A stretch of 64,000 nucleotides of DNA from Candidatus Campbellbacteria bacterium GW2011_OD1_34_28. Lineage in GTDB: Bacteria > Patescibacteriota > Minisyncoccia > Phycocordibacterales > UBA12079. Location of the stretch: assembly GCA_001029775.1 (NCBI GenBank), contig CP011215.1:618303-682302 (forward strand), written 5' to 3'. The position numbers and the translations under genes were made by a program. This document shows, one piece after another, positions 548-58,118 of the stretch. Position 1 is the first letter of the stretch. Every line of letters begins with the position of its first letter. The notes under the pieces were generated by a model. That model did no database searches, was not told where the DNA came from, and saw nothing but the letters and a program-made list of their open reading frames with translations.

Positions 548-3004
548 TTATATAACAATATTCACCAATTTGTTCTTTACATAAATAACCTTTTTTGGTT
601 CATTCCCCGCCATCCATTTTTTAGACGCTTCTTGTTCCATTGCTAGTTTTTTCACATCATCATCACTTGTCCCCTCTTCTACCTGTATCTCTGCTCTTAC
701 TTTTCCGTTTATTTGAATCACAACTGTATAAGAAGTATCTTTCATCAAATTTTCGTCAAACTTTGGCCAAGGTTCGTTGTGAATAGAATTTGTATTTCCT
801 AAAATCTGCCAAAGTTCTTCTGTAATATGTGGAGCAAATGGAGAAAGAATTTTCAAAAAACTTTCATAATCTTGTCGTGCAATCTCTTCTTCCTTTTCCA
901 TATCATTAATCAATATCATCATTGCACTGACAGCGGTATTATATTTTAGATTATCAATATCATTTGAAACTTTTTTAATCGTCTTGTGCAACAAATTTTG
1001 GATTTTGTTTTCTACTTTCAACTCTCCACCTTTCACTTTCGAACTAAGTCTCCACATTTTCTCCAAAAATCTATACACCCCGACAATGTTGTCTTCGTTC
1101 CACATCACTTCATCTTCTAGAGGTGCGGCAAAAAGCATGTAAGTTCTAACAGAATCAGCCCCGAATCTGTTTACCATATCATTTGGATTGATAACATTTC
1201 CTTTTGATTTAGACATCTTTTTCCCTTGCCCATCCAATACCATTCCCTGATGACGCAATCTTTGAAATGGTTCATCAAAATTTACCAAACCGATTTTATT
1301 CATTGCTTTTACAAAAAATCTTGCAAACAACAAGTGCATATATGTGTGTTCTGCCCCTCCAATATACAAATCTACCGGTAACCATTTTTTGCGAGTTTCT
1401 GAGCAAAACTCTTTTTCATTATGAGGGTCGGGGTATCTCAAAAAATACCAAGAAGAATCCACAAAAGTATCCATAGTATCGTATTCAGGCACCCAACCTT
1501 CACCAAAAATTTTTTCTGTCCTTTCTTTCAGTTCTTTTGATTTTGCGAGAGGAGAGATCCCTGTTGGAACAAAATCTACATCCGCAGGCAAAGTCCATGG
1601 CAGATTTTCTTCGGGAACCAAGTGAGCTTCCCCATCTGGAGAATAAACAACAGGAATCGGACAACCCCAATATCTTTGACGAGAAATAGACCAATCACGC
1701 AGACGGTAATTAGTTGTCATTTTTCCTCCAACAAATTTTGTAATCTCTTTCTTTGCTTCTATATTATACATATCGGTAAATTTGCCAGAATTTACCAAAT
1801 AACCAGATTCCGAAAAACATTTTTTACCACTTCTCACATCACCGATAAACTCTAAAACCCCTTTTTGTTCAGAATGTTTAATTAAAGGATCACGGTTTTC
1901 AACAATCATTGGGCTTACAACTGGTTCTATTTTTAAATTATATTTCTTCGCAAACTCCAAATCCCTTTCATCATGCGCCGGCACCGCCATAATTGCACCT
2001 GTTCCATATCCACCCAAAACATAATCCGCAATAAAAACAGGGATTTCTTCTTGTGTTGCAGGATTAATAGCAAAAATTCCTTCCAGTTTTACACCGGTTT
2101 TTTCTTTCGCCTCGATTCTGTCCATCTCCGTTTTATTTTTTGCTCTCTCTATATAATTTTTAACCTCACCTAAATTCTGAATTCTATTTTCTAAATTCTC
2201 AATTATTGGATGTTCCGGAGCAAGCACCATATAAGTCGCACCAAACAAAGTATCAGGCCTTGTCGTAAACACCTTAATTTTAAGTTCTGAATTCTGAATT
2301 CTAAATTCTATTTCTGCTCCTTCACTTTTTCCGATCCAGTTAACCTGATTCTTTTTCGTATGTTCAGGCCAGTCTATCTTTTCCAAACCTGTAATCAAAT
2401 CATCTGCAAAATCAGTAATTTTGAAAAACCACCCGGGGACTTCTTTCTGAATAATCTCTGCTCCACATCTCTCACACTTGCCATCCACTACTTGTTCATT
2501 GGCAATAACAGTTTGGCAAGAAGAACACCAATTTGTCTTTGATGTTTTTTTGTAAACCAAATCGTTTTTATAAAATTGACTGAATATCCATTGAGTCCAT
2601 TTGTAATATTTTGGATCACTCGTCACTGCTTTTTCATCAAAATCATAAGCAAGACCCAACATTTTCATTTGACCAATATAAGTATTGATATTTTTTTCTG
2701 TTGTTTCAGCAGGATGAACTTTTGTCTTGATGGCATAATTTTCCGCAGGCAAACCAAAGGCATCAAAACCTTGTGGGTGCAAAACATTAAATCCCTGCAT
2801 CTTTTTGAAACGATAATAAACATCGCTCGCGGTATAACTTTCGGTATGTCCCATATGCAAACCGTCTCCTGATGGATAAGGGAACATATCCAAAATATAA
2901 TATTTTGGTTTTGAAGTATCGTCTTTATCTATTTTAAAAGCCCCTGTTTCCAACCAGTGCTTTTGCCATTTAGATTCAATATCTTTGTGATTATATTTCT
3001 CCAT
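548..3004 (-). CDS. leuS: Leucyl-tRNA synthetase (818 aa).
   Basis: HMGH(TESY) class I HIGH-type motif near the N-terminus, a KMSKSKGN motif, the CP1 editing region, and the typical bacterial LeuRS length and layout. Confidence 0.95.
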   Translation of the reverse strand: MEKYNHKDIESKWQKHWLETGAFKIDKDDTSKPKYYILDMFPYPSGDGLHMGHTESYTASDVYYRFKKMQGFNVLHPQGFDAFGLPAENYAIKTKVHPAETTEKNINTYIGQMKMLGLAYDFDEKAVTSDPKYYKWTQWIFSQFYKNDLVYKKTSKTNWCSSCQTVIANEQVVDGKCERCGAEIIQKEVPGWFFKITDFADDLITGLEKIDWPEHTKKNQVNWIGKSEGAEIEFRIQNSELKIKVFTTRPDTLFGATYMVLAPEHPIIENLENRIQNLGEVKNYIERAKNKTEMDRIEAKEKTGVKLEGIFAINPATQEEIPVFIADYVLGGYGTGAIMAVPAHDERDLEFAKKYNLKIEPVVSPMIVENRDPLIKHSEQKGVLEFIGDVRSGKKCFSESGYLVNSGKFTDMYNIEAKKEITKFVGGKMTTNYRLRDWSISRQRYWGCPIPVVYSPDGEAHLVPEENLPWTLPADVDFVPTGISPLAKSKELKERTEKIFGEGWVPEYDTMDTFVDSSWYFLRYPDPHNEKEFCSETRKKWLPVDLYIGGAEHTYMHLLFARFFVKAMNKIGLVNFDEPFQRLRHQGMVLDGQGKKMSKSKGNVINPNDMVNRFGADSVRTYMLFAAPLEDEVMWNEDNIVGVYRFLEKMWRLSSKVKGGELKVENKIQNLLHKTIKKVSNDIDNLKYNTAVSAMMILINDMEKEEEIARQDYESFLKILSPFAPHITEELWQILGNTNSIHNEPWPKFDENLMKDTSYTVVIQINGKVRAEIQVEEGTSDDDVKKLAMEQEASKKWMAGNEPKKVIYVKNKLVNIVI

Positions 3005-3042
3005 AATGTTCCCATTTTATCATAAAAATTTATAAGACTCAC

Positions 3043-3083
3043 ACCTATCCCAAAATTTTAACGACCGTTAAAATTTTAGGATA
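3043..3083. repeat. Palindromic repeat, family member 1: CCTATCCCAAAATTTTAACG-AC-CGTTAAAATTTTAGGATAG.
   Basis: Near-perfect 19-bp arms. Lies in the 5' region of leuS and 3' of the PaaX-like gene. Further copies at 3751, 27817, 28733, 31379 and 44725. Confidence 0.85.
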
Positions 3084-3116
3084 GTTGCGATACTTTATAA
3101 TACTTTGTTATCTTTT

Positions 3117-3146
3117 GCGATTTCATGCGATTTCATGCGATTTCAT
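3117..3146. repeat. Tandem decamer repeat (GCGATTTCAT) x3.
   Basis: Three exact consecutive copies read directly from the sequence. Confidence 0.9.
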
Positions 3147-3166
3147 GTTTTATTTTATAACCAATT

Positions 3167-3727
3167 TCACTTCAAACCAAATACCTCTTTTAACCATTTT
3201 TCATTTTCAATTCGATTAACCTCCATATACAAAACATCGCTATCAATAAAAATTTTTGTCTTCAACAAAAAAATCAATTCTTCGCATTCATAAGGAAAAA
3301 CCCAAACGCTGTTCTGCAATTTAACAAAACCAAGTCTATTTAAATTGGATCTGAGCAAATCCCTAAGACCTCTCTTTTTTTCTTCAACATCAAAAATTAT
3401 CACCCTCCATTTTTTGTCCCATTTTTTTGGTTTTTCTATTTTTAAATCTCCCAATTCATATCTTCCAATCAATTCATCGCCTTTTTTGGTAAGTTTAATA
3501 AATTCAGAATCACCTTTTCTAACTTTTTCTAGCATACCCTTTCTCAACAAATTCTTGATTGACTCATTCATATTATATTTTTCCTTAACCCATCTTTTTT
3601 TATTTGGGGAAAATTGTTTAATGACTTGAAGAGCATTGGGAGCCACGATAGCAACACCAATTAATCCGGCTGTCGCTACGGTCGTTAAAATAATTTTTTG
3701 AATATTTATATTTTTTGAATCGTCCAT
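3167..3727 (-). CDS. PaaX-like transcriptional regulator: N-terminal TM helix, winged HTH (..LTKKGDELI..), and a WDKKW...FDV...LQNSVWVFPYEC core with the Cas2/VapD-type fold.
   Basis: Resembles E. coli PaaX (WDGKWLLLLSE...; yRLTekG wing). The core matches the Cas2 beta1-alpha1-beta2 signature (hhhFDV...R..L...G.rvQNSV[FW].c). The gene is flanked on both sides by 40-45 bp palindromes. Confidence 0.6.
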   Translation of the reverse strand: MDDSKNINIQKIILTTVATAGLIGVAIVAPNALQVIKQFSPNKKRWVKEKYNMNESIKNLLRKGMLEKVRKGDSEFIKLTKKGDELIGRYELGDLKIEKPKKWDKKWRVIIFDVEEKKRGLRDLLRSNLNRLGFVKLQNSVWVFPYECEELIFLLKTKIFIDSDVLYMEVNRIENEKWLKEVFGLK

Positions 3728-3750
3728 TCATATATTTATAGCATAAATCT

Positions 3751-3795
3751 CACCTATCCCGAAATTTTAACGGTCGTTAAAATTTTGGGATAGGT
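3751..3795. repeat. Palindromic repeat, family member 2: CACCTATCCCGAAATTTTAACG-GT-CGTTAAAATTTTGGGATAGGTG.
   Basis: 22-bp arms with one mismatch. Lies immediately upstream of the PaaX-like gene start. Confidence 0.85.
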
Positions 3796-3930
3796 GACGG
3801 TTTATATGTTTTTTATATTTCATATTTTATATTTTGTATTTTGTATTCTATATTTTTGTAATTCAAAGTTTTCTAATTCAATTCAAAAATTTAAAGCCTG
3901 AGTATCAATTAATTCATTCTTTAAAATTTA

Positions 3931-3964
3931 AAAAGCCCCGATTGAGGTCGGGGCTTTTGTTTTG
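3931..3964. terminator. Rho-independent terminator downstream of ORF 3970-4377 (-).
   Basis: AAAAGCCCCGA ttgagg TCGGGGCTTTTG. GC stem with flanking A- and T-runs. Confidence 0.75.
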
Positions 3965-3969
3965 ATAAC

Positions 3970-4377
3970 TTATGCCGTTGCTGGTGTCACAACAGGCTCA
4001 CTGTTAATTTTTGAAGGGTCATCTTCTTTTATGGCCGTAATAATTTTATTGACATATAAAATCATGACTTCCCTGTCTGGATTATATTTACAAGACTCGT
4101 AGTACAATTCCCAAAAAATAAATTTTGTTTTACCCACAACAAAATTATTGCAAATTCCTTTTTGAAAAAGCGGACATTCCTCACACCTAAAATTTGAGAT
4201 ATTTTTCACATCAAATTCAATACAATAACCACATTCACCTTTCAACCGAGGAGTAGTCCCGACCTGCAAAAAATCATCCATCATAGTTTGTTTAATCTCA
4301 AGCCATTTTTTTAATGAATTATTCCACCTTTCAGGCCATTCTTTTGAATAGACATGTTGCGGTAAATTTTTCGACAT
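3970..4377 (-). CDS. Cys-rich hypothetical protein (135 aa).
   Basis: ORF with its own terminator. CGYC...CEEC...C motifs suggest metal binding. No recognisable family. Confidence 0.5.
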   Translation of the reverse strand: MSKNLPQHVYSKEWPERWNNSLKKWLEIKQTMMDDFLQVGTTPRLKGECGYCIEFDVKNISNFRCEECPLFQKGICNNFVVGKTKFIFWELYYESCKYNPDREVMILYVNKIITAIKEDDPSKINSEPVVTPATA

Positions 4378-7171: not shown

Positions 7172-7211
7172 AAGCTTAGTTTTTAGTCATTAGTTTTTAG
7201 TTTTTAGAAAA

Positions 7212-13989: not shown

Positions 13990-14085
13990 TGAGGTAGATT
14001 GCCGAGGTAGAATTACCAAAAGCGTGCCAGCGTGGAATGAGGTAGAGAGTGAGAGGTAGAGTGCTTGAGGTAGAGTGACTGAGTA
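13990..14085. repeat. Five direct copies of GAGGTAGA (iteron-like) within about 90 bp.
   Basis: ctGAGGTAGAttgccGAGGTAGAatt...atGAGGTAGAgagtgaGAGGTAGAgtgcttGAGGTAGAgtgactGAGTAGAta. Confidence 0.8.
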
Positions 14086-14212
14086 GATATTTTTTTAATT
14101 AACCTAATATCAATTATATAGATATATACCTGTATATGTCAACTTTAAAAATGTATATTTTTTGTAATCAAAAAAACCTTATTTAAAAGCTTTTTTAGGC
14201 TTATACAAAAAG

Positions 14213-14524
14213 TTATCCACAGTTTTTAAACTTGAGTTATCCACAGTTTAAAAACTGTGGATAACTTAAAAAACGTCGTTGAATTTAAATTATTTTTAGA
14301 AAAATGAAAAAAGCCGCCGAAGCGACTTTTTTCAATGTAGATATTAATCCGAAAATTAATATCTACATTGTATCCACAGATCCGAAAATCTACGGATACA
14401 ATGTAGATATAAAACCGAAATTTTATATCTACAGCGTACTTACTAGTCCGAAGATTAGTAAGTACATTTCTATCTTAACCAATTGAGATAATTTGTCAAT
14501 ACTTTTTCGATTAACTGTGGATAA
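14213..14524. promoter_or_regulatory. Cluster of DnaA boxes (TTATCCACA). Perfect 9-mers at 14213-14221 (+), 14237-14245 (+), 14256-14264 (-) and 14516-14524 (-). One 8/9 box (gTATCCACA) at 14370-14378.
   Basis: Boxes 2 and 3 form a perfect palindrome AGTTATCCACAGTTTaaAAACTGTGGATAACT. Four perfect copies of a single 9-mer within 312 bp is far above chance in 64 kb. Confidence 0.7.
14307..14466. repeat. Array of five tandem hairpins with a conserved CCGAA(A/G) loop (UUCG-type loop on the minus strand) and variable stems.
   Basis: H0 GCCGC-cgaa-GCGAC; H1 ATGTAGATATTAAT-ccgaaa-ATTAATATCTACAT; H2 TATCCACAGAT-ccgaaa-ATCTACGGATA; H3 TGTAGATATAAAA-ccgaaa-TTTTATATCTACA; H4 TACTTACTAG-tccgaag-ATTAGTAAGTA. 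Confidence 0.8.
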
Positions 14525-14556
14525 CTTGGAAACAATTAATTTAAAAGGTTGGCTTA

Positions 14557-19892: not shown

Positions 19893-19937
19893 CGTGTCTC
19901 GCAAGGGATGGGAGTTCGACTCTCCCCCTCGGCACCA
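19893..19937 (+). pseudogene. Tandem duplicate of the 3' 45 nt of tRNA-Leu (variable arm, T-arm, acceptor and CCA). It lacks a matching 5' half.
   Basis: CGTGTCTCGCAAGGGATGGGAGTTCGACTCTCCCCCTCGGCACCA is identical to the 3' portion of the upstream tRNA. No GCCGAGG acceptor 5' strand precedes it. Confidence 0.8.
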
Positions 19938-19946
19938 AAAATAAAA

Positions 19947-19987
19947 AACTGCAATATTCGTGAGTATGAATATTGCGGTTTTTTGTT
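19947..19987 (+). terminator. Terminator after the tRNA-Leu locus.
   Basis: CTGCAATATTC gtgagtatg GAATATTGCGG followed by TTTTTTG. Confidence 0.7.
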
Positions 19988-20108
19988 TTTGGTGCACATT
20001 TTTGTTTTGTATAATCGCTTCAAATTTTTAGTAAAGACAATGACTTCGCAACAAAAACCACCGGATCCTCACGCGGTGATTTTTGATTATCTTTCACTAG
20101 CCAATTAT

Positions 20109-22486: not shown

Positions 22487-22518
22487 ACATAACAAATCTA
22501 AAGAATGAACCAGAAACA

Positions 22519-22560
22519 AAAATGCCGAAATTTATGCGACCGCATAAATTTCGGCATTTT
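22519..22560. terminator. Bidirectional terminator with a long hairpin.
   Basis: AAATGCCGAAATTTATGCG acc GCATAAATTTCGGCATTT, an 18-bp stem. Confidence 0.8.
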
Positions 22561-22601
22561 TGCTTACTTATTACTTTAATCTTGCTACTTAATGCTAGCA
22601 G

Positions 22602-27789: not shown

Positions 27790-27816
27790 TAGTTTTATAT
27801 ATATAAAAACAATCTT

Positions 27817-27859
27817 AAAATTCTGACGACCGTTAAAATTTTGAGATAGTTTTTCTATT
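27817..27859. repeat. Palindromic repeat, family member 3 (degenerate): ...CTTAAAATTCTGACG-AC-CGTTAAAATTTTGAGATAG....
   Basis: Shares the ACGACCGTTAAAATTTTG(A/G)GATAG arm with members 1 and 2. The flanks match the reverse complement of member 4. Confidence 0.75.
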
Positions 27860-27932: not shown

Positions 27933-28721
27933 CTAGGCGGTTTTTATATTTTCCTCCGCCGTATCTTCGGAATTGAGTCTTTTTATTTCTTCAAAAATTG
28001 CTTTTGCATTTTGTTCAATAAAATGACGACGATTTTGAATCAAAGTGTTAAAAAGATCAACACGATTTTCTTTTAAATAAAAACGCTCATCAGTGTCTCC
28101 TAAATTCTCAAAAGACAAAGCCGGGAAACAATGAAAACAAATAAAAGTATGGTCCCACAACATTTTTGAGTAAAGACCGAGCAGGTCATAATATTTATTG
28201 ATTTGGTAATTATTGTTTAATACGAGATTTAACCCATTCAAATCCTTCTTTAACTCATCAATGTCAATATTTAAACGCGATCCGCAAAAATTGCTGATAT
28301 CAATTATCAGTTGAGGTCTATATTTGGGGGTAATCACTTCCGGCAAATCTTCGGCCAAATACAAAACTATATTATTTCTTACTCGTTCCAAACTGGACTT
28401 ATGAAAGTGGTTTGCCTTTTCCACCATTTTAATTAAATGATCCTCGAAAAGCCTTCTCTGACAAAACTCTTCAAAGATCAATGCGAAAATAAAACTTGGG
28501 ATGAGAGACATCACAAGAAATAAATGTACGCTATCAGAATTAAGGTTCTCCTCCCCTGTTAAATGGTGAAGAATGAGTAAAGTAATTAGTCCAAAAATAC
28601 AAGAAAGTAAAAACCAATTCCAACAAAATCTTTTAATATTCACAAGACCTCCATTTATAAGTTTAAAAGACCAAAACCAATTTCCTTTTGTAATACTGCA
28701 AAAAATGAGGTTAAAAGTCAA
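27933..28721 (-). CDS. Two-TM membrane protein with a cytoplasmic domain (262 aa). Paralog of ORF 28832-29539. TTG start in the track.
   Basis: N-terminal TM hairpin. The C-terminus (...YLKENRVDLFNTLIQNRRHFIEQ...EEIKRL) aligns with YLFKENILPFKLNFFFQQLREIRNYFEE...EIQRL of the neighbouring gene. Flanked by palindrome members 3 and 4. Confidence 0.5.
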   Translation of the reverse strand: MTFNLIFCSITKGNWFWSFKLINGGLVNIKRFCWNWFLLSCIFGLITLLILHHLTGEENLNSDSVHLFLVMSLIPSFIFALIFEEFCQRRLFEDHLIKMVEKANHFHKSSLERVRNNIVLYLAEDLPEVITPKYRPQLIIDISNFCGSRLNIDIDELKKDLNGLNLVLNNNYQINKYYDLLGLYSKMLWDHTFICFHCFPALSFENLGDTDERFYLKENRVDLFNTLIQNRRHFIEQNAKAIFEEIKRLNSEDTAEENIKTA

Positions 28722-28732
28722 GAAAAATAAAA

Positions 28733-28775
28733 CTATCCTAAAATTTTAACGACCGTCAGAAGTTTAAGATTGTTT
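28733..28775. repeat. Palindromic repeat, family member 4: CTATCCTAAAATTTTAACG-AC-CGTCAGAAGTTTAAGATTG.
   Basis: The left arm is identical in type to members 1 and 2. Lies in the promoter region of ORF 27933-28721. Confidence 0.75.
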
Positions 28776-28791
28776 CTATATTTAAAACAAT

Positions 28792-28834
28792 AACAGCCGA
28801 AGATTTCGCACACGAAACCTTCGGCTGTTTTTTA
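28792..28834 (-). terminator. Terminator downstream of ORF 28832-29539.
   Basis: ACAGCCGAAG atttcgcacacgaaac CTTCGGCTGT followed by TTTTTT. Confidence 0.7.
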
Positions 28835-29539
28835 TTCTTGATCCTCAAGTTCAAGCTTCTCAAGACGCTGAATTTCTTTTTTCAACTCGTCTTGTTTTTC
28901 TTCAAAATAATTTCTTATTTCTCTCAGTTGCTGAAAGAAAAAATTAAGTTTGAAAGGAAGAATATTTTCTTTAAATAAATAAGCGCTAGATAGCCCTCCT
29001 TCCACCAATTTAAACTCTGGAAAATATCCACATTTAGCGGGGTAATTTAAAGACTGAGTTATATCCAAAAAAATACCCAAAAGTTTGTCATATCCTCCGT
29101 CATGTTCACCAAACCGTAAAGAAGAACGAAGTTGAATAACACATCCAGAAAGAAATTGTGCCGTGCAATCTTCACTTAGTAAAGACGAGTCAATTTTTTC
29201 TTTTTTTGAACCAATCACCAACACCCAAGCGGGGTGTCGTAAAATATTTTTTGATCTGGAGAGATACTCAAAAACAAGACTCATTGCAGTTACGACGTTG
29301 TTTTTGTATAACTCGTTAATTTCCTTTATCTCTGTGATTATATATTTTTCGTATGCCCTCTTTTCGGAAAAAACCTGCCAAACGAGTGACAAAAGTAGCC
29401 CAAAAAAAGAAGACAAAGAAAGTATAAACAAAGATCCCTTACCACTCAAAGCTGAATCTTGTGTAACAAAAGTTTTTAAAAGACACAAAAAAGCTAATAA
29501 CAAAATAAAAAAGAAAACGGAACGGACAAAAATCATCAT
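28832..29539 (-). CDS. Two-TM membrane protein with a cytoplasmic domain (235 aa). Paralog of ORF 27933-28721.
   Basis: See the paralog alignment under ORF 27933-28721. N-terminal TM hairpin. Confidence 0.5.
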   Translation of the reverse strand: MMIFVRSVFFFILLLAFLCLLKTFVTQDSALSGKGSLFILSLSSFFGLLLSLVWQVFSEKRAYEKYIITEIKEINELYKNNVVTAMSLVFEYLSRSKNILRHPAWVLVIGSKKEKIDSSLLSEDCTAQFLSGCVIQLRSSLRFGEHDGGYDKLLGIFLDITQSLNYPAKCGYFPEFKLVEGGLSSAYLFKENILPFKLNFFFQQLREIRNYFEEKQDELKKEIQRLEKLELEDQE

Positions 29540-29633
29540 AATGTTACTCCTTTGTTAAATTTATGTTTGTGTAGAACAAATATCTGAAGCTAATATCCCA
29601 CAAAGACACCTAAAAAGTCAAGGAAAATATAAA

Positions 29634-29672
29634 ACAACCCAATTGAGACATCCGACGTCTCAATTGGGTTGT
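29634..29672. terminator. Strong hairpin terminator.
   Basis: AACCCAATTGAGAC atccgac GTCTCAATTGGGTT, a 14-bp stem, followed by GTTTTTATTTT. Confidence 0.8.
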
Positions 29673-29679
29673 TTTTATT

Positions 29680-30054: not shown

Positions 30055-30110
30055 TTGCTTCTTACACCCTACACCTTACACCTTTCTCCTTATACCTTAT
30101 TCCTTCTTAT
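30055..30110. repeat. Low-complexity (TAAGG/GTGTAAG)n-type element overlapping the tgt stop codon. Inverted copy of 33481-33530.
   Basis: Reverse complement reads ATAAGAAGGAATAAGGTATAAGGAGAAAGGTGTAAGGTGTAGGGTGTAAG. It shares TAAGGTATAAGGA and AAGGTGTAAGG with the fmt 3' element. TAA occurs in all three frames. Confidence 0.8.
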
Positions 30111-31305: not shown

Positions 31306-31378
31306 AATGAAACAGTATAAAGTCTGGAAAGTCGAAAGTCCATAAAAATTGTTTACCAAAAAACTCACGAGGTCTGAA

Positions 31379-31416
31379 ATGTGCAAAGTTTTGACGACCG
31401 TCAAAACTTTGCACAT
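31379..31416. repeat. Palindrome, family member 5: ATGTGCAAAGTTTTGACG-AC-CGTCAAAACTTTGCACAT (perfect 18-bp arms), in the tgt/def divergent intergenic region.
   Basis: Perfect palindrome sharing the (G/A)ACGACCGT(C/T) centre with members 1-4. Confidence 0.85.
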
Positions 31417-31499
31417 TTTAAACACCTCTTAATACCTAGTGTATTCAAATATTAAATACCCGCTTGCACAGGCAAGCTTGCTACTTTATACTAAATTCA

Positions 31500-32003
31500 A
31501 TGTTAGAGATATTGCAAAAAGGCAATCCTATACTAAATAAGAAGGCGTCGGAGATAAAACCCGATGATATTTCGTCTACCCAAATTCAAGATTTGATAAA
31601 AGAAATGAAAGAGATATTGAGCAAAAAAAATGATGGGGCCGCTTTGGCAGCACCTCAAATCGGAAAATCTGTTCGTCTTTTTATAATCGCTGAAAATGTT
31701 TTCACCGAGGAAGAATCCAACATGGTTTTTATTAATCCAAAAATAATTGAACAATCGGAAGAAAAAGAATGGATGGAAGAAGGATGTCTCAGTGTGAAAG
31801 GAATATACGGAAAAGTAAACCGTTCAACATCTTGTACAATCAGAGCTTATGATTTGCAGGGAGAAATTTTTACTCAAAAAGGACACGGCTTAATCTCTCA
31901 GATTTTTCAACACGAAGTGGATCACCTAAACGGAATATTGTTTACAGAAAAAGCGAAAGACTTGTTCCAAGTAGATGACGAAAACCAAAACAAAAAACTG
32001 TAA
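31500..32003 (+). CDS. def: Peptide deformylase (168 aa). The track ORF starts at 31464 with TTG.
   Basis: All three PDF motifs are present: GAALAAPQIG, EGCLSV and HEVDHLNG. Confidence 0.9.
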   Translation: MLEILQKGNPILNKKASEIKPDDISSTQIQDLIKEMKEILSKKNDGAALAAPQIGKSVRLFIIAENVFTEEESNMVFINPKIIEQSEEKEWMEEGCLSVKGIYGKVNRSTSCTIRAYDLQGEIFTQKGHGLISQIFQHEVDHLNGILFTEKAKDLFQVDDENQNKKL

Positions 32004-32086
32004 AATTTAGAAATTTTACAGTTTTTTGTTTTGGTAATTTAAATTATCAAACTATTCAAGTATTCAATTGAATATGAGAAATATAA

Positions 32087-32628: not shown

Positions 32629-33489
32629 ATGGTGAATTTAAAGATAGCGTTTTTTGGGACACCAGAATTTTCTGCAAGAATTTTGGATAAAATGAAAGAG
32701 GGAGAATTTTCTCCATCTTTAATAATTGCAACACCCGACAAACCAAAAGGAAGGAATCTTGTTATGACACCGCCCTCAACAAAAATATGGGCAGAACAAA
32801 ATAATATTGATGTCCTACAGCCAACAAAACTAAAAGCTCCTGAATTTTTAGACGAATTAAAAAAGACCGACTGGGATTTATTTGTCGTTGCTTCGTACGG
32901 TAAAATAATTCCTCAAGATGTTTTGGATATTCCCAAATACGGAACAATAAATATCCACCCTTCTTTGTTGCCTCGTCTTCGAGGGGCTTCTCCAATGCAG
33001 TCCGCGATTTTAAAAGAGAACGAAACAGGAATGACAATAATGCTAATGGATGCTGATATGGATCACGGTCCTATACTGAAACAAGAAAAATTGGATATCA
33101 AAAAATGGCCTCCAAAAATTAATGAACTGGAGGACATGATGGTAGAAGTCGGAGGAAGACTTTTAAACGAAGTTATACCACTATGGATAAGTGGAAAAAT
33201 AAAACCAAAAGAACAAGATCATAACAAAGCAACATATATTGATAAGATAAACAAAGAAGAAGCTCTAATAAATTTTGATGATGATCCTTTTTGGAATTAT
33301 AGAAAAATACAAGCCTTGCAAAATTATAAACCTTATTTTTTTACAGAAAGAAATGACAAAAAAATAAGAATAATAATCAAAGAAGCAAAATTTGAAGATG
33401 GAGAGTTGATAATTATGAAAGTATTGCCGGAAGGAAAAAAAGAAATGGATTATCAAGATTTTTTGAGAGGAAGTAACAATAAGGTGTAA
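32629..33489 (+). CDS. fmt: Methionyl-tRNA formyltransferase (286 aa).
   Basis: IAFFGTPEFSARIL N-terminus. HPSLLPRLRGASPMQSAIL (the SLLP formyltransferase motif). A C-terminal OB-like domain is present but short. Confidence 0.9.
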   Translation: MVNLKIAFFGTPEFSARILDKMKEGEFSPSLIIATPDKPKGRNLVMTPPSTKIWAEQNNIDVLQPTKLKAPEFLDELKKTDWDLFVVASYGKIIPQDVLDIPKYGTINIHPSLLPRLRGASPMQSAILKENETGMTIMLMDADMDHGPILKQEKLDIKKWPPKINELEDMMVEVGGRLLNEVIPLWISGKIKPKEQDHNKATYIDKINKEEALINFDDDPFWNYRKIQALQNYKPYFFTERNDKKIRIIIKEAKFEDGELIIMKVLPEGKKEMDYQDFLRGSNNKV

Positions 33490-33530
33490 GGAGTAAGGTA
33501 TAAGGAATAAGGGGTAAGTAATAAGAAAAG
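33481..33530. repeat. Low-complexity (TAAGG)n-type element overlapping the fmt stop codon.
   Basis: AAGGTGTAAGGAGTAAGGTATAAGGAATAAGGGGTAAGTAATAAG. Inverted counterpart at 30055-30110. Confidence 0.8.
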
Positions 33531-44724: not shown

Positions 44725-44764
44725 AATGTGTATAAAAAGAACGACCGTACTTTTTATACACATT
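44725..44764. terminator. Palindrome AATGTGTATAAAAAGAACG-AC-CGTACTTTTTATACACATT between convergent vanY-like and uvrC genes. Family member 6 by its ACGACCGT centre.
   Basis: 19-bp arms with one A.A mismatch. Contains the same AACGACCGT core as the palindrome family. Confidence 0.7.
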
Positions 44765-56231: not shown

Positions 56232-56244
56232 ATTTTTCAAAACA

Positions 56245-56272
56245 AAAATCACCCATTGGGGTGATTTTTGTT
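56245..56272. terminator. Bidirectional terminator.
   Basis: AAAAATCACCC attg GGGTGATTTTTG. Confidence 0.8.
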
Positions 56273-56339
56273 TTGAAACGGAAAATATGCAAAGCAAATT
56301 TTCCGTCTAAATTCTAAATTCTCTTTTCTAAATTCTCAT

Positions 56340-58118
56340 TTATTTTCTCTTATTCTTTGATCTCTCTGTTTCGGTCAAATGTTTCTTTCTCAAACGAACG
56401 CTCTTGGGAGTAATTTCTAGATATTCATCGTTCGCCATTACTTCAAGACCCGATTCAATAGAAATCTTTTTAGGTGGTATCAAAACAATGTTTTCATCAG
56501 ATCCAGCTGCTCTCATATTAGTCAATTGTTTTCCTTTTGTTGGATTTACCACCATCTCTTCGCCCTTTGAAGTATTCCCAACAACCATACCTTCATAAAT
56601 TTCTGTGTTTGCTTCTATATACAATTCCCCTCTCTCCTGTAGATTGTACAAAGAAAAACCAAGAGCCTTTCCTGTCGCCATCGATATCATTGAGCCAGTT
56701 GCCCTCTTTGCAATCTCTCCTGCGTATTCCTTGAAGCCAATCACACGACTAGAAATGATCCCCTCACCTTTTGTATCCACGATAAATTGTCCACGATAAC
56801 CCAAAAGACCTCTAGTTGGAATCTCAAAAATCAAACGAGTTGTATTTTCATGCTGTCTCATTGAAATAAGAATTCCTCTTCTCTTTCCCAGTTTTTCTAT
56901 TACAACTCCCTGGGCTTCATTTGGGACATCAACGGTCACTTCTTCGTAAGGTTCCAATTTCACTCCATCTTTTTCTTTTATAATAATGTGTGGTTGGGAT
57001 ACTTGAAGCTCGTAACCTTCTCTTCTCATATTTTCAAGCAAAACAGCAATGTGCAATTCTCCACGACCTGCTACTTTGTAATTTCCTTCTGAAAAATCTA
57101 CTTCCAAACCTACGTTTATTTCCAATTCTCTTTCCAATCTCTCTCGGATCTGTCGGCCTGTAACAAATTTTCCTTCTCTTCCTGCAAACGGAGAATTGTT
57201 TACCAAAAAATCCAAAGTGATTGTTGGTTCATCTACTTTGATAGCAGGCATTGGTTCTATATTCTCATCTGTTGTTATTGTCTCTCCAATAAAAACATCA
57301 GGAAGCCCAGCAAGCATAACAATATCGCCCGCAGTTACTTCTTTTGCTTCTTCACGAGACATTCCTTTAAATGTAAAGATTTTTGTTATCTTTCCTTTTC
57401 TTGTCTCTCCTGTGTGTTTTTTTACAAAAATATTTTCTCCGTCTTTTAAAACTCCGTCATAAATTCTGCAAATAGCCAATCGCCCAAGAAAATTGTCATA
57501 TCCCAAATTAAATACCTGTGCCTTTAAAGGAGCATTTGTATTTGAAGGTGCAGGAGAAACTTCTTCCAAAATAGTCTCTAACAAAGGAGTTAGATCTTTT
57601 GATTCATCTTCCAAATTTTTCTTTGCAATACCATCACGGCCAATTGCATAAACAGTTGTAAAATTTAGTTGTTCGTCGTTTGCTCCCAATTCCATAAACA
57701 ACTCAAAAACATCTTCACCTGCTTGTTGAGGATTCGCTGCTGGTTTGTCTATTTTATTTAAAACAACAATTGGTTTTAGACCCAATTCCAAAGATTTTTT
57801 CAAAACGAAACGAGTTTGTGGCATCGGGCCTTCTTGAGCATCCACAATCAAAAGAACCGAGTCAATGGAACGAAGCACGCGTTCTACTTCTGATCCAAAA
57901 TCGGCGTGTCCAGGAGTATCCACAATATTTATCTTTGTTCCTTTATAAATAAGAGACGTGTTTTTAGCATAAATAGTAATACCTCTTTCCTGTTCTATCT
58001 TGTCGGTATCCATACTCATTCCGTCAGCAAACATACCCGTCTGACGCATAATGGCATCCGTTATAGCTGTTTTTCCATGGTCCACATGGGCAATGATTGC
58101 GATGTTTCTAATTTCCAT
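56340..58118 (-). CDS. typA: Translational GTPase TypA/BipA (592 aa).
   Basis: [20 protein letters not shown]1 motif. EF-G-like domains. The C-terminal ...[20 protein letters not shown] matches the TypA tail and is unlike LepA. Confidence 0.88.

Follow-up and report, generated by a model that had tools for sequence, protein, structure and literature searches.

A family of long palindromes is found in the 64-kb stretch of a Candidatus Campbellbacteria chromosome analysed here (the window), and related palindromes lie throughout the Patescibacteria beside the genes of a small PaaX/Cas2-like protein. We propose, with a probability of roughly 0.6, that these palindromes are the DNA-binding sites of this Patescibacteria-specific protein family, a prediction made from sequence. 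Protein and palindromes together most likely form a variant of the PaaX type of regulator/operator system, and the family appears to be large and undescribed. To our knowledge, almost nothing is known of gene regulation in the Patescibacteria (candidate phyla radiation), whose genomes are tiny and encode few recognisable transcription factors, and for which there is no genetic system. Literature searches for PaaX combined with Cas2-like proteins or with the candidate phyla radiation returned nothing, and searches for palindromic intergenic repeats in Patescibacteria returned nothing relevant.

Six palindromes had been listed in a first-pass annotation of the window. All of them are present, displaced by a few bases at most, and the count proved too low: the window holds seven long palindromes centred on CG-AC/GT-CG, which fall into four or five half-site classes and are given here without strand. 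Twelve CGACCG/CGGTCG hexamers occur in the 64 kb, and 7 of them are centres of long palindromes; the arm CTATCCCAAAATTTTAACG is found six times in the window at up to 3 mismatches (0.05 expected), and RACGRYCGTY five times (0.31 expected). Sites 1 and 2 bracket a PaaX-like gene on the minus strand (3167-3727). Site 1 (3045-3084; CTATCCCAAAATTTTAACG-AC-CGTTAAAATTTTAGGATAG, 19-nt arms with 1 mismatch) is the downstream bracket, its centre being 102 bp past the stop codon of this gene and 60 bp upstream of the ATG of leuS, while site 2 (3750-3797; TCACCTATCCCGAAATTTTAACG-GT-CGTTAAAATTTTGGGATAGGTGA, 23-nt arms with 1 mismatch) is the upstream bracket and putative operator, centred 46 bp upstream of the ATG. 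The palindrome that was not in the annotation, site 7 (22517-22562; CAAAAATGCCGAAATTTATGCG-AC-CGCATAAATTTCGGCATTTTTG, perfect 22-nt arms around GCG-AC-CGC), lies between two convergent genes, a small DUF5670 ORF that comes after a sigma factor gene and a holB-like gene, and its arm shares 18 of 21 positions with the palindromes flanking the second paralogue of the genome (P0002). Sites 3 (27810-27849) and 4 (28733-28772) flank a membrane-protein gene. Site 5 (31377-31418; AAATGTGCAAAGTTTTGACG-AC-CGTCAAAACTTTGCACATTT, perfect 20-nt arms) sits in the tgt/def divergent promoter region, midway between the two genes and 92 and 102 bp from their starts, with a half-site (TGTGCAAAG) unlike the others. 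Site 6 (44725-44764; AATGTGTATAAAAAGAACG-AC-CGTACTTTTTATACACATT, 19-nt arms with 1 mismatch) lies between the convergent VanY-like and uvrC genes, and its half-site, TGTGTATAA, is identical to that next to a paralogue at another locus (L067). The measured site-to-gene distances bear out the gene contexts that had been assigned (leuS, the PaaX-like gene, the membrane-protein gene, tgt/def and convergent gene ends). At three of the seven sites (3, 6 and 7) the neighbouring genes converge, leaving no promoter for a regulator to act on. In strains of the same species (L092-L096) the arrangement is identical to that of the window. A scan with TATCYYRAAATTTTAACGRYCGT gave 0 matches in a collection of genome contigs in which the species of the window is not a representative genome, and a scan of viral contigs for the site pattern found none.

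The protein encoded by 3167-3727 (186 aa), here called mini-PaaX, consists of a hydrophobic 19-residue segment (residues 12-30), a partial winged helix (53-95) and a Cas2-like PaaX_M domain (101-172). PaaX_M (PF20803; 72.9 bits against a cut-off of 24, residues 101-172) is its sole Pfam match, and precomputed annotation assigns PF20803 to all but one of 120 listed homologues. With the PaaX equivalog model TIGR02277 the protein reaches 38.6 bits, where the cut-off is 264.55, and the match is confined to profile positions 40-133. In the Pfam search the protein matched neither PF07848, the N-terminal winged helix (wHTH) of PaaX, nor PF08223, the PaaX_C effector domain for phenylacetyl-CoA; mini-PaaX ends 14 residues past the Cas2-like domain. 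Cas2 itself (TIGR01573 / PF09827) scores just below its cut-off (23.2 against 24.5 bits). AF2 models residues 53-186 with confidence and the N-terminal 52 residues with low confidence; of the winged helix, the recognition helix, the wing and a single additional helix are all that is confidently modelled. In fold comparisons E. coli PaaX (8a39) ranks first and Cas2 structures come next, and the wing region aligns with the wHTH proteins AspA and PaaX. The N-terminal segment (hydropathy 2.15) is hydrophobic throughout the family and may serve as a membrane anchor. The family motifs FD(I/V)xE and LQNSVW resemble those of Cas2, and the alignment shows that the β1 Asp of Cas2 (in FD-x-E) is kept in the family; E. 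coli PaaX, as far as we know, does not have it. Family members are uniformly about 180-200 aa long, form 679 clusters at 50% identity (E <= 1e-30) and are present in two to seven or more paralogues per small genome. Paralogues within one genome are 57-78% identical, and thus old, and near-identical copies were not seen. Public records often label family members 'Cas2' or 'hypothetical', and some 'CRISPR-associated endonuclease Cas2'. A search for relatives of the protein in 2.9 million viral contigs found none.

In the first-pass annotation the palindromes were seen as possible operators of a dimeric wHTH regulator, the flanked PaaX-like gene being the candidate, and a check was proposed of whether homologous palindromes accompany such genes in related genomes. 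They do. In 80 homologous loci from other genomes, palindromic sites centred on CGNNCG reach a density of 1.49 per kb in the 350 bp around the gene on either side, compared with 0.017 per kb elsewhere, an enrichment beside PaaX_M genes of about 90-fold relative to the rest of the same loci. Among the 76 loci from other Patescibacteria with both flanks available, a CGRYCG centre is present within 160 bp upstream in 63, downstream in 60 and on both sides in 55, against a chance expectation of 0.11 per 160-bp stretch, and in every one of these 55 pairs the two copies share their arms. Median distances of the centres are 41-48 bp to the ATG on the upstream side and 43-47 bp to the stop codon on the downstream side, and the downstream copy is kept in 71% of loci even where the next gene is convergent. 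Where the two copies are asymmetric, they form direct repeats in 8 of 9 cases; the orientation of the centre between the two copies is random (9 direct, 11 inverted). Gene order is conserved across species, down to 48% protein identity, beside leuS, rpsL-rpsG, adk-map and rpiB/fba, and one syntenic locus (L013) has the same gene order and spacing as the window, with a site about 56 bp before leuS.

Aligned on their dyad, the sites show an invariant RCG-RY-CGY centre, then a loose spacer and, further out at positions 10-18, a 9-bp half-site that is specific to the locus. Within the centre, positions 2-3 are GC by construction of the search pattern, and position 4 is R and symmetric in 94% of cases. 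Symmetry falls to 59-76% at positions 5-9 and rises again to 80-93% at positions 10-18, where the upstream and downstream copies are 76-93% identical and family-wide sequence information is near zero; beyond position 20 the signal is at background. The half-sites are private to each locus: the two copies at one locus differ by 1.13 mismatches of 9, different loci by 5.87 and paralogues within a genome by 3.5-6.4. Positional orthologues keep them, as shown by ATCCCAAAA in the window and ATACCAAAA in L013, both adjoining leuS. Column entropy swamped the mutual information of protein columns with half-site bases, which was uninformative. Across loci the centre can be AC, GT, AT or GC; AC or GT is found in about 89% of sites, where an independent purine choice in each half would give about 50%. 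This anatomy supports a protein-binding site, unlike a hairpin, and, together with co-occurrence, half-site privacy and span, it favours the operator idea. Co-localisation and co-variation of protein and site could also come from shared descent of a gene-plus-repeat unit.

The arrangement at the gene itself suggests how such a system might work. A putative extended -10 element (TGcTATAAA) lies at 3735-3743 on the minus strand, 7 nt upstream of the ATG, a position that would imply a leaderless or near-leaderless mRNA, and the -35 position of this promoter falls within the proximal half-site of site 2. The half-sites form an inverted repeat of long span (36-40 bp) over the predicted promoter of the gene, with the -10 just downstream. 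In 74% of homologous loci the interval from the upstream site to the ATG contains a -10-like hexamer, usually 5-10 nt short of the start codon; control stretches have one in about 40% of cases. An antisense promoter within the downstream site was also considered and rejected, -10-like elements being at background frequency there. We envisage that the Cas2-like domain most likely forms a dimer, as in PaaX and Cas2, which would extend along about 36-40 bp of DNA. Its two winged helices would read the paralogue-private 9-bp half-sites at positions 10-18 either side of the dyad, and the Cas2-like dimer, with conserved Arg, Asp and Glu, would face the universal RCG-RY-CGY centre. The gene of each paralogue has a copy of its site on either side. 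Since the upstream copy directly adjoins a -10 whose position suits a leaderless mRNA and overlies the -35 position of what appears to be a -10-only promoter, autoregulation is the most likely outcome, and repression the simplest reading of it. The other copy, some 45 bp downstream of the stop codon, belongs to the unit whatever gene comes next; a roadblock, an insulator or a loop with the upstream copy are guesses at its role.

In the window, the protein of 3167-3727 would read the ATCYYAAAA-type half-sites of sites 1-4, which would give it a small regulon made up of its own gene, leuS and the variable membrane-protein genes. Sites 5, 6 and 7 carry other half-sites, and the proteins that read them are therefore most likely other paralogues, whose genes would lie elsewhere in the genome. 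The candidacy of this ORF as the regulator, which the first-pass annotation had extended to all six of its palindromes, would hold for members 1-4 but probably not for members 5 and 6, nor for site 7. The arms said to be shared by members 1-4 do belong to one half-site class, ATCYYAAAA. Members 3 and 4 are poor palindromes in themselves, each being composed of one 'A' arm (CTATCYYAAAATTTTAACG) and one 'B' arm (CAATCTTAAAMTTCTGACG).

These two sites deserve closer description. Site 3, the left bracket of the membrane-protein gene, reads B arm-AC-A' arm (CAATCTTAAAATTCTGACG-AC-CGTTAAAATTTTGAGATAG) and site 4 reads A arm-AC-B' arm (CTATCCTAAAATTTTAACG-AC-CGTCAGAAGTTTAAGATTG), so that they are mirror images of each other around the gene (27933-28643, minus strand). 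The gene is an accessory orphan of 236 aa, with a GTG start at 28643 preceded by GGAGG, and belongs to a variable tandem family that includes 28832-29539. Site 4 lies 10 nt upstream of its TTGACT -35 element (28724-28729, minus strand), and the promoter of the paralogue (29621-29592) has the same TTGACT-N18-TGn organization. Gene callers place the protein at 192 or 236 aa; an exact look-up of a 262-aa ORF version found no record, because its TTG start lies too far upstream. The differences between A and B arms fall mainly at the tolerated Y positions of ATCYYAAAA, and at one other locus (L008) B-type sites accompany the gene and an A-type site stands alone. Full B-B' palindromes are present in related contigs. 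Separate, canonical GC-rich terminators adjoin both sites. In a strain variant (L010), one more paralogous cassette of about 950 bp is present at site 4, exactly between two sites; its gene is 47.6% identical, its promoter and terminator modules are conserved, and one of its junction arms is chimeric within the arm. Two further loci (L003 and L012) contain bracketed homologous orphans of 196 and 207 aa with raised G+C. A Pfam search of the bracketed orphan genes found no families.

Observations of this kind raise the alternative that the palindromes are site-specific recombination sites delimiting gene cassettes, in which a circle of one gene and one site integrates to leave two direct copies. 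We consider this unlikely, and give no better odds to its corollary that the Cas2-like/wHTH protein is the site-recognition or DNA-cleaving component, with strand exchange at CG-RY-CG. Several features would be expected of cassettes: brackets at near-equal distances on both sides of the gene, asymmetric copies that are direct repeats (the 8 of 9 above), brackets around unrelated orphan genes (27933-28643 and those of L003 and L012), and a strongly conserved asymmetric centre resembling a crossover region. The mirror hybrids at sites 3 and 4 (B-A' ... A-B') recall attL/attR, full B-B' sites being found in related contigs, the additional cassette of about 950 bp in L010 falls exactly between two sites, and the family has retained the β1 Asp of Cas2. 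Nevertheless, the units are syntenic across species, beside the same four sets of genes and down to 48% identity, and the paralogues are old (57-78% identity), with half-sites of their own and no near-identical copies. Integrase, transposase and cas genes were not found among the scanned window ORFs (nearly all of those of at least 100 aa), and no relatives turned up in the 2.9 million viral contigs. Conserved gene order, the lack of a recombinase nearby and the lack of phage relatives together argue against a mobile element. Empty sites were searched for and none was found, including in the metagenome contigs with B-B' palindromes, whose neighbouring genes are unrelated to those of the window. 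For the L010 cassette, its paralogy (47.6%), conserved modules and chimeric arm are consistent with a tandem array that underwent unequal homologous recombination. The A and B arms fall in a single half-site class, with the B-type sites at the gene and the A-type solo site of L008, and the orientation of the centre between copies is random. The recombination-site option of the first-pass annotation is thus disfavoured, and so is its more specific form for sites 3 and 4, attL/attR of a serine recombinase with the AC centre kept in one orientation, given the variable centres, their random orientation (9/11) and arms of one class (ATCYYAAAA).

A second alternative, which we find still harder to credit, is that the palindromes are driven by structure and are not tied specifically to the PaaX-like protein. 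They would then be selfish hairpins of the REP/BIME kind, or else long RNA hairpins or cruciforms that terminate transcription in both directions or stabilise mRNA. Most window copies are indeed near-perfect, with predicted hairpins of -16 to -32 kcal/mol, and three lie at convergent gene ends, where bidirectional terminators are expected. Where the two copies of a locus have diverged, 37 positions show the change in both arms and 81 changes affect one arm alone; the mirrored ones would result from selection on a stem or from templated quasi-palindrome correction. The distribution of symmetry, however, is the opposite of that of a loop-closing stem, the loop-proximal positions 5-9 being the least symmetric and the outer positions 10-18 the most. 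Sites 3 and 4 form weak hairpins (-11.6 and -2.5 kcal/mol) and many sites of distant homologues are also poor hairpins, yet centre and outer half-sites are kept in all these cases. The 8 nt that come after the sites contain 2.6-2.9 T and so do not form a T-tract; the combination of GC-rich stem and T-tract at 3' ends that marks an intrinsic terminator is missing; four of the window sites lie in 5' regions, and ordinary GC-rich terminators are already provided beside sites 3 and 4. Mismatches on the sense strand show no G-U bias, and an Rfam search gave no match. By its Pfam match the flanked gene does not encode a Y1/RAYT transposase, the copy number is low (7 in 64 kb, over four or five half-site classes), and the roughly 90-fold enrichment at PaaX_M genes is inexplicable without the protein. 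The REP/BIME-like proposal of the first-pass annotation is likewise disfavoured.

A plain autoregulator leaves some observations unaccounted for, namely the downstream copy, the direct-repeat bias (8/9) and the bracketed unrelated orphan genes, and the AC/GT centre in about 89% of sites is not predicted by a symmetric dimer. The downstream copy and the bracketed orphans leave room for a function beyond transcription control. In one such scenario, for which we see little probability, the Cas2-like/wHTH proteins would nick, cleave or synapse DNA at CG-RY-CG, delimiting and occasionally exchanging single-gene cassettes, their own or orphan. If this were true, it would amount to a Cas2-based cassette system without Cas1 and might connect Cas2 and PaaX with repeat-bounded DNA units in evolution. 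Under the preferred reading, that of paralogue-specific operators, the predicted DNA target of a large protein family can be read directly from the sequence beside the gene, regulons can be predicted by genome scanning, and the paralogues provide a predicted natural set of orthogonal protein-operator pairs. The mode of DNA binding of the PaaX/Cas2-like fold becomes open to direct testing with heterologously expressed proteins, and the label 'CRISPR-associated endonuclease Cas2' carried by family members in some records would be corrected.

Compared with known systems, the unit shares individual features with several of them. It resembles Cas2 in its ferredoxin-like fold and in the FD(I/V)xE and LQNSVW motifs, but the Cas2-like domain of mini-PaaX is fused to a winged helix and the repeats bracket a gene, not spacers; no cas1 or other cas genes were found among the scanned window ORFs, and a tandem-repeat scan of the window found no CRISPR-like array. 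With integron attC and Acinetobacter pdif sites it has in common small single genes bounded by imperfect palindromes, hybrid-looking sites around an accessory gene and a cassette difference between strains. Unlike in those systems, no IntI or Xer gene is adjacent, nor a serine recombinase (scanned window ORFs), the cassettes carry promoters and terminators of their own, and the units are syntenic across species; moreover, the arms differ between loci of one genome, so a single host recombinase could not read them all. As in REP/RAYT units, extragenic palindromes of a class particular to the gene stand on either side of it, different gene copies in a genome go with different classes, solo copies exist between genes, and the gene passes vertically at a fixed place. 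Mini-PaaX differs from RAYT in not being a Y1 HUH transposase (PaaX_M is its sole Pfam match, and the fold is that of PaaX/Cas2), there is no GTAG-type 5' tetranucleotide, the copy number is far lower, and what is conserved is the centre and the outer half-sites, not the hairpin stem.

The closest parallel is with PaaX itself, which autoregulates via promoter occlusion. Its operator in E. coli is TGATTC-N27-GAATCA (PMC9493321), a long-span inverted repeat to which the CTATCC-N28-GGATAG found here compares well. Both proteins have a winged helix followed by a Cas2-like central domain (PF20803). Mini-PaaX, however, has about 186 aa against about 316 for PaaX, is without the PaaX_C ligand domain, and has a strongly hydrophobic, conserved N-terminus and a Cas2-type FD-x-E. 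Its gene has no paa genes nearby, and the family is expanded within each genome, with a half-site private to each paralogue. Finally, the mini-PaaX sites add an invariant RCG-RY-CGY centre to the PaaX-like inverted repeat, and bracket the gene on both sides.

The first-pass annotation listed six palindromes in the window, and an independent scan recovers all six within a few bases of the positions it gave: 3045-3084, 3750-3797, 27810-27849, 28733-28772, 31377-31418 and 44725-44764 (sites 1 to 6). The finding is real and non-random. One arm type, A (CTATCCCAAAATTTTAACG), occurs six times in the window at three or fewer mismatches against 0.05 expected, and RACGRYCGTY occurs five times against 0.31. 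Sites 3 and 4 do not stand as self-palindromes: in each, one arm is of A type and the other of B type (CAATCTTAAAMTTCTGACG), and the two sites are mirror images around a membrane-protein gene (27933-28643). A seventh member, overlooked earlier, lies at 22517-22562 (site 7), with perfect 22-nt arms around GCG-AC-CGC. The centres of these long palindromes make up 7 of the 12 CGACCG/CGGTCG hexamers in 64 kb of ~34% G+C, whose genes are housekeeping ones (leuS, tgt, def, uvrABC, mreB, murA, parB).

Sites 2 and 1 bracket ORF 3167-3727 (minus strand), which encodes a protein of 186 amino acids, here called mini-PaaX. Its sole Pfam match is PF20803, the Cas2-like central domain of PaaX (72.9 bits); against the PaaX equivalog profile the protein scores far under the cut-off, and against Cas2 slightly under it. 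In an AlphaFold2 model based on 85 homologues, residues 53-186 are placed with confidence, comprising a recognition helix, a β-wing, a further helix and a ferredoxin-like domain, whereas confidence is low for residues 1-52. Its best structural match is E. coli PaaX (8a39), followed by M. tuberculosis Rv0674 and then many Cas2 proteins; the wing region aligns also with the winged-helix proteins AspA and PaaX. Residues 12-30 are charge-free (mean hydropathy 2.15), precede a Lys/Arg-rich stretch and are kept family-wide, with an invariant Pro30 in a near-invariant Ala-Pro-Asn motif, so that a membrane anchor is plausible. The family counts 679 representative clusters at E ≤ 1e-30, and every organism named by its sources is a Patescibacterium. 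Genomes can carry several copies: the window's species has a second paralogue, P0002 (82% identical), and one Paceibacterota MAG has at least seven. Full-text literature searches found no description of the family or its palindromes. About 6 kb from P0002, at 3551-4252 of locus L097 in a genome of the window's species (GCA_000990765.1), a 233-aa gene has a weak Y1_Tnp (IS200/RAYT-type) Pfam match; no CGRYCG palindromes flank it.

The palindromes had been proposed as operators of a dimeric winged-helix regulator, with the flanked PaaX-like gene as the candidate, and the comparative evidence supports this. In a metagenome search, ten contigs carried the site pattern, and in three of them (L002, L006, L008) a homologue is bracketed by CGACCG-centred palindromes with arms unlike those of the window. 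We then compared 80 homologue-encoding loci from species-representative genomes, with a scan that made no use of the arms seen in the window. Within 350 bp of the gene, palindromic sites centred on CGNNCG (score ≥ 10) reach 1.49 per kb; elsewhere in these loci their density is 0.017 per kb. By a looser criterion, a CGRYCG hexamer lies within 160 bp upstream in 63 of 76 loci, within 160 bp downstream in 60 and on both sides in 55, for a background expectation of 0.11 per stretch, a strongly positive outcome of the co-occurrence check. All 55 upstream/downstream pairs share arms, and median distances from the centre are 41-48 bp to the ATG on the upstream side and 43-47 bp to the stop on the downstream side. 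In four distant homologues' loci (L063, L068, L079, L082), several from Zambryskibacteria-type genomes, a flanking palindrome has a 4-nt centre (CAC-AGGG-GTG, CAC-TGTG-GTG, CGC-GATA-GCG) in place of CG-RY-CG, and the centre thus has clade-specific variants. L006 carries three copies of its own site within 320 bp upstream of the homologue (2690-3060); those at 2715 and 2964 are near-identical, flanks included, indicating a 249-bp tandem duplication that carried the site.

Alignment of 54 upstream/downstream pairs on the dyad resolves the anatomy of the site. Position 1 is a purine (A 0.55, G 0.45) with low left-right symmetry (9-19% identical); positions 2-3 are G and C, with content and symmetry set by the search pattern; position 4 is R (A 0.70), 94% symmetric. 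Positions 5-9 are variable (59-76% symmetry), and positions 10-18 carry almost no family-wide information, being locus-specific, yet are 80-93% symmetric and 76-93% identical between upstream and downstream copies; beyond position 20 symmetry falls to background, about 30%. From either end, the site thus runs through a private 9-bp half-site and a spacer to a universal RCG-RY-CGY centre, the two sides being mirror images. This pattern is the opposite of that of a hairpin under stem selection, where constraint should peak beside the loop; the centre and outer half-sites persist even in sites 3 and 4, and in many belonging to distant homologues, that make poor hairpins. Half-sites differ at 1.13 of 9 positions between copies of one locus, at 5.87 between loci and at 3.5-6.4 between paralogues of the same genome, and positional orthologues retain theirs: beside leuS, the window has ATCCCAAAA and L013 has ATACCAAAA. 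The E. coli PaaX operator, TGATTC-N27-GAATCA, has an unusually long span (PMC9493321), as has CTATCC-N28-GGATAG of the window. From the anatomy, the private half-sites and this span we infer a PaaX-like dimer on each site: the private half-sites would be recognised by the winged helices, and the centre, which is invariant, would lie against the likewise invariant Cas2-like dimer. Candidate centre contacts are W103, D104, K106, W107, R108, D113, E116, R122 and R126, six of which are invariant in the 85-sequence family alignment, with K106, R108 and E116 nearly so. We put the probability that the palindromes are binding sites of mini-PaaX proteins at roughly 0.6.

The promoter context fits such a role. 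Between upstream site and ATG, a TATAAT-like hexamer (5 or 6 matching positions), sometimes preceded by TGn and typically ending 5-10 nt before the ATG, occurs in 74% of loci against ~40% of control stretches, with no Shine-Dalgarno sequence. In the window the putative promoter reads TGcTATAAA-N7-ATG (3743-3725, minus strand). Such a -10-only, leaderless promoter would have its -35 position covered by the proximal half-site, as is classic for an autoregulator. The leuS start follows site 1 by about 58-60 bp, and since the syntenic L013 repeats this arrangement, co-regulation of leuS is possible. A TTGACT-N18-TGn promoter, of a type common to the paralogous membrane-protein genes, begins 10 nt downstream of site 4, whose centre thus falls near -60. 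At the equivalent position before the TTGACT promoter of a 235-aa membrane-protein gene stands a long palindrome lacking the CGRYCG centre (29631-29675, AAAACAACCCAATTGAGAC-ATCCGAC-GTCTCAATTGGGTTGTTTT), which may be another regulator's site or a terminator.

Judged by their half-sites, sites 1-4, whose A and B arms form one class (ATCYYAAAA), would go with the adjacent mini-PaaX. Sites 5-7 resemble other paralogue classes and are most likely targets of paralogues whose genes lie beyond the window: the arm of site 7 (half-site ATGCCGAAA) is identical at 18 of 21 positions to palindromes flanking P0002 in genomes of the window's species; the site 6 half-site, TGTGTATAA, is identical to one beside a paralogue in L067, with a similar solo site in L012; and that of site 5, TGTGCAAAG, is related to site 6. 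The site 6 half-site (other strand TTATACACA; window 44725-44764, L067 3109, L012 4045) also fits the DnaA-box consensus, TTATNCACA, so that the palindrome contains a pair of DnaA-box-like sequences in inverted orientation, perhaps by coincidence, perhaps as cross-talk.

Several further elements were seen in the window. Around the mini-PaaX gene, a perfect 10-bp repeat (TGCGATTTCA x 3.2, 3116-3147) lies between its stop and site 1, and TTTTATA x 6.6 (3811-3856) directly outside site 2. A 13-nt copy of inner arm and centre, TTTTAACGACCGT, lies within the coding sequence (3672-3700, minus strand; codons 10-17, encoding part of ILTTV); the L006 and L008 homologues have no CGRYCG hexamer there, so chance or a local patch of gene conversion may account for it. 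Long palindromes at 31984-32035, 19932-19995 and 56235-56278, whose arms start A-rich and end T-rich (e.g. ACCAAAACAAAAAACTGTAAAATTT / AAATTTTACAGTTTTTTGTTTTGGT, perfect 25-nt arms), lack the CGRYCG centre and do not belong to the family; the make-up of their arms hints at bidirectional terminators. Intergenic tandem heptamers (30061-30105, 33478-33525, also 2170-2316, 7176-7207 and 56306-56341; e.g. CTTACAC x 5.6, AATAAGG x 6.9) repeat, where examined, a Shine-Dalgarno-like AAGG(A/T)G motif on the adjacent gene's strand. At 13990-14530 lies the probable replication origin of the chromosome, or failing that a DnaA-regulated region, with four perfect DnaA boxes, TTATCCACA, at 14213, 14237, 14256 and 14516 and one near-perfect, two of them forming a palindrome (14235-14266), beside several GAGGTAGA repeats (~13993-14087) and nested palindromes (ATATCTACATTG..., 14333-14438).

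A simple operator model leaves several facts unexplained. The downstream copy is present in 82% of loci when the next gene is co-directional and in 71% when it is convergent, and no promoter or T-tract is associated with it; where arms are asymmetric, the two copies are direct repeats in 8 of 9 cases. Site pairs also bracket unrelated orphan genes: in the window the membrane-protein gene, in L003 and L012 homologous orphans (196 and 207 aa) of raised G+C. In the strain variant L010 an additional paralogous cassette sits precisely between two sites, and in sites 3 and 4 the two B arms, placed as mirror images, have five differences from the A arm in common. AC or GT forms the central dinucleotide in ~89% of sites, against ~50% if halves were chosen independently; one possible reason is avoidance of the fully palindromic, restriction-type CGATCG and CGGCCG. 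A change that separates the upstream from the downstream copy often appears in both arms, mirrored (37 compensated positions versus 81 single-arm changes). Templated correction of quasi-palindromes is an established mechanism, and could produce this with no selection. The ~200-aa orphan family (L003 917-1507, L012 3295-3918, possibly L008 1306-1941) has no Pfam match, lies 2-7 G+C points above its loci and is repeatedly palindrome-bracketed or beside a mini-PaaX unit.

The bracketing architecture and the bracketed orphans keep alive a role in DNA processing or cassette handling, which we consider unlikely. A mobile or recombination element is opposed by orthologous units that keep their gene order across species (leuS with a 183-aa gene, rpsL-rpsG, adk-map, rpiB/fba/L25) down to 48% protein identity, by old within-genome paralogues, each with its own half-site and no near-identical copies seen, by the lack of any integrase, transposase or cas gene among the window ORFs scanned (nearly all ≥100 aa) and of a CRISPR array in the window, and by the absence of relatives from a viral contig collection. 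Unequal crossing-over explains the L010 cassette equally well, since the tandem units have their promoter, operator and terminator modules in common, and one of the junction arms is itself a chimera. Nor do the two arm types of sites 3 and 4 call for recombination, being one half-site class; the L008 organism has both, B-type sites beside the gene and, at a distance of 2.9 kb, a solo site of A type.

With integron and pdif cassettes the sole likeness is the bracketing of single genes. REP/RAYT systems have a like layout, in which a gene is flanked by its own palindrome class, with several orthogonal pairs per genome and vertical inheritance, but in the mini-PaaX system there is no Y1 transposase, copy number is not high and conservation is not centred on a stem. 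The protein falls outside Cas2 and also outside the PaaX equivalog family, having no ligand domain, a truncated winged helix and a low score. What emerges is a Patescibacteria-wide expansion of putative DNA-binding mini-PaaX/Cas2-like proteins, each with a private palindromic site around a universal centre and its gene bracketed by two copies, which would work much as a PaaX-type repressor/operator pair does.
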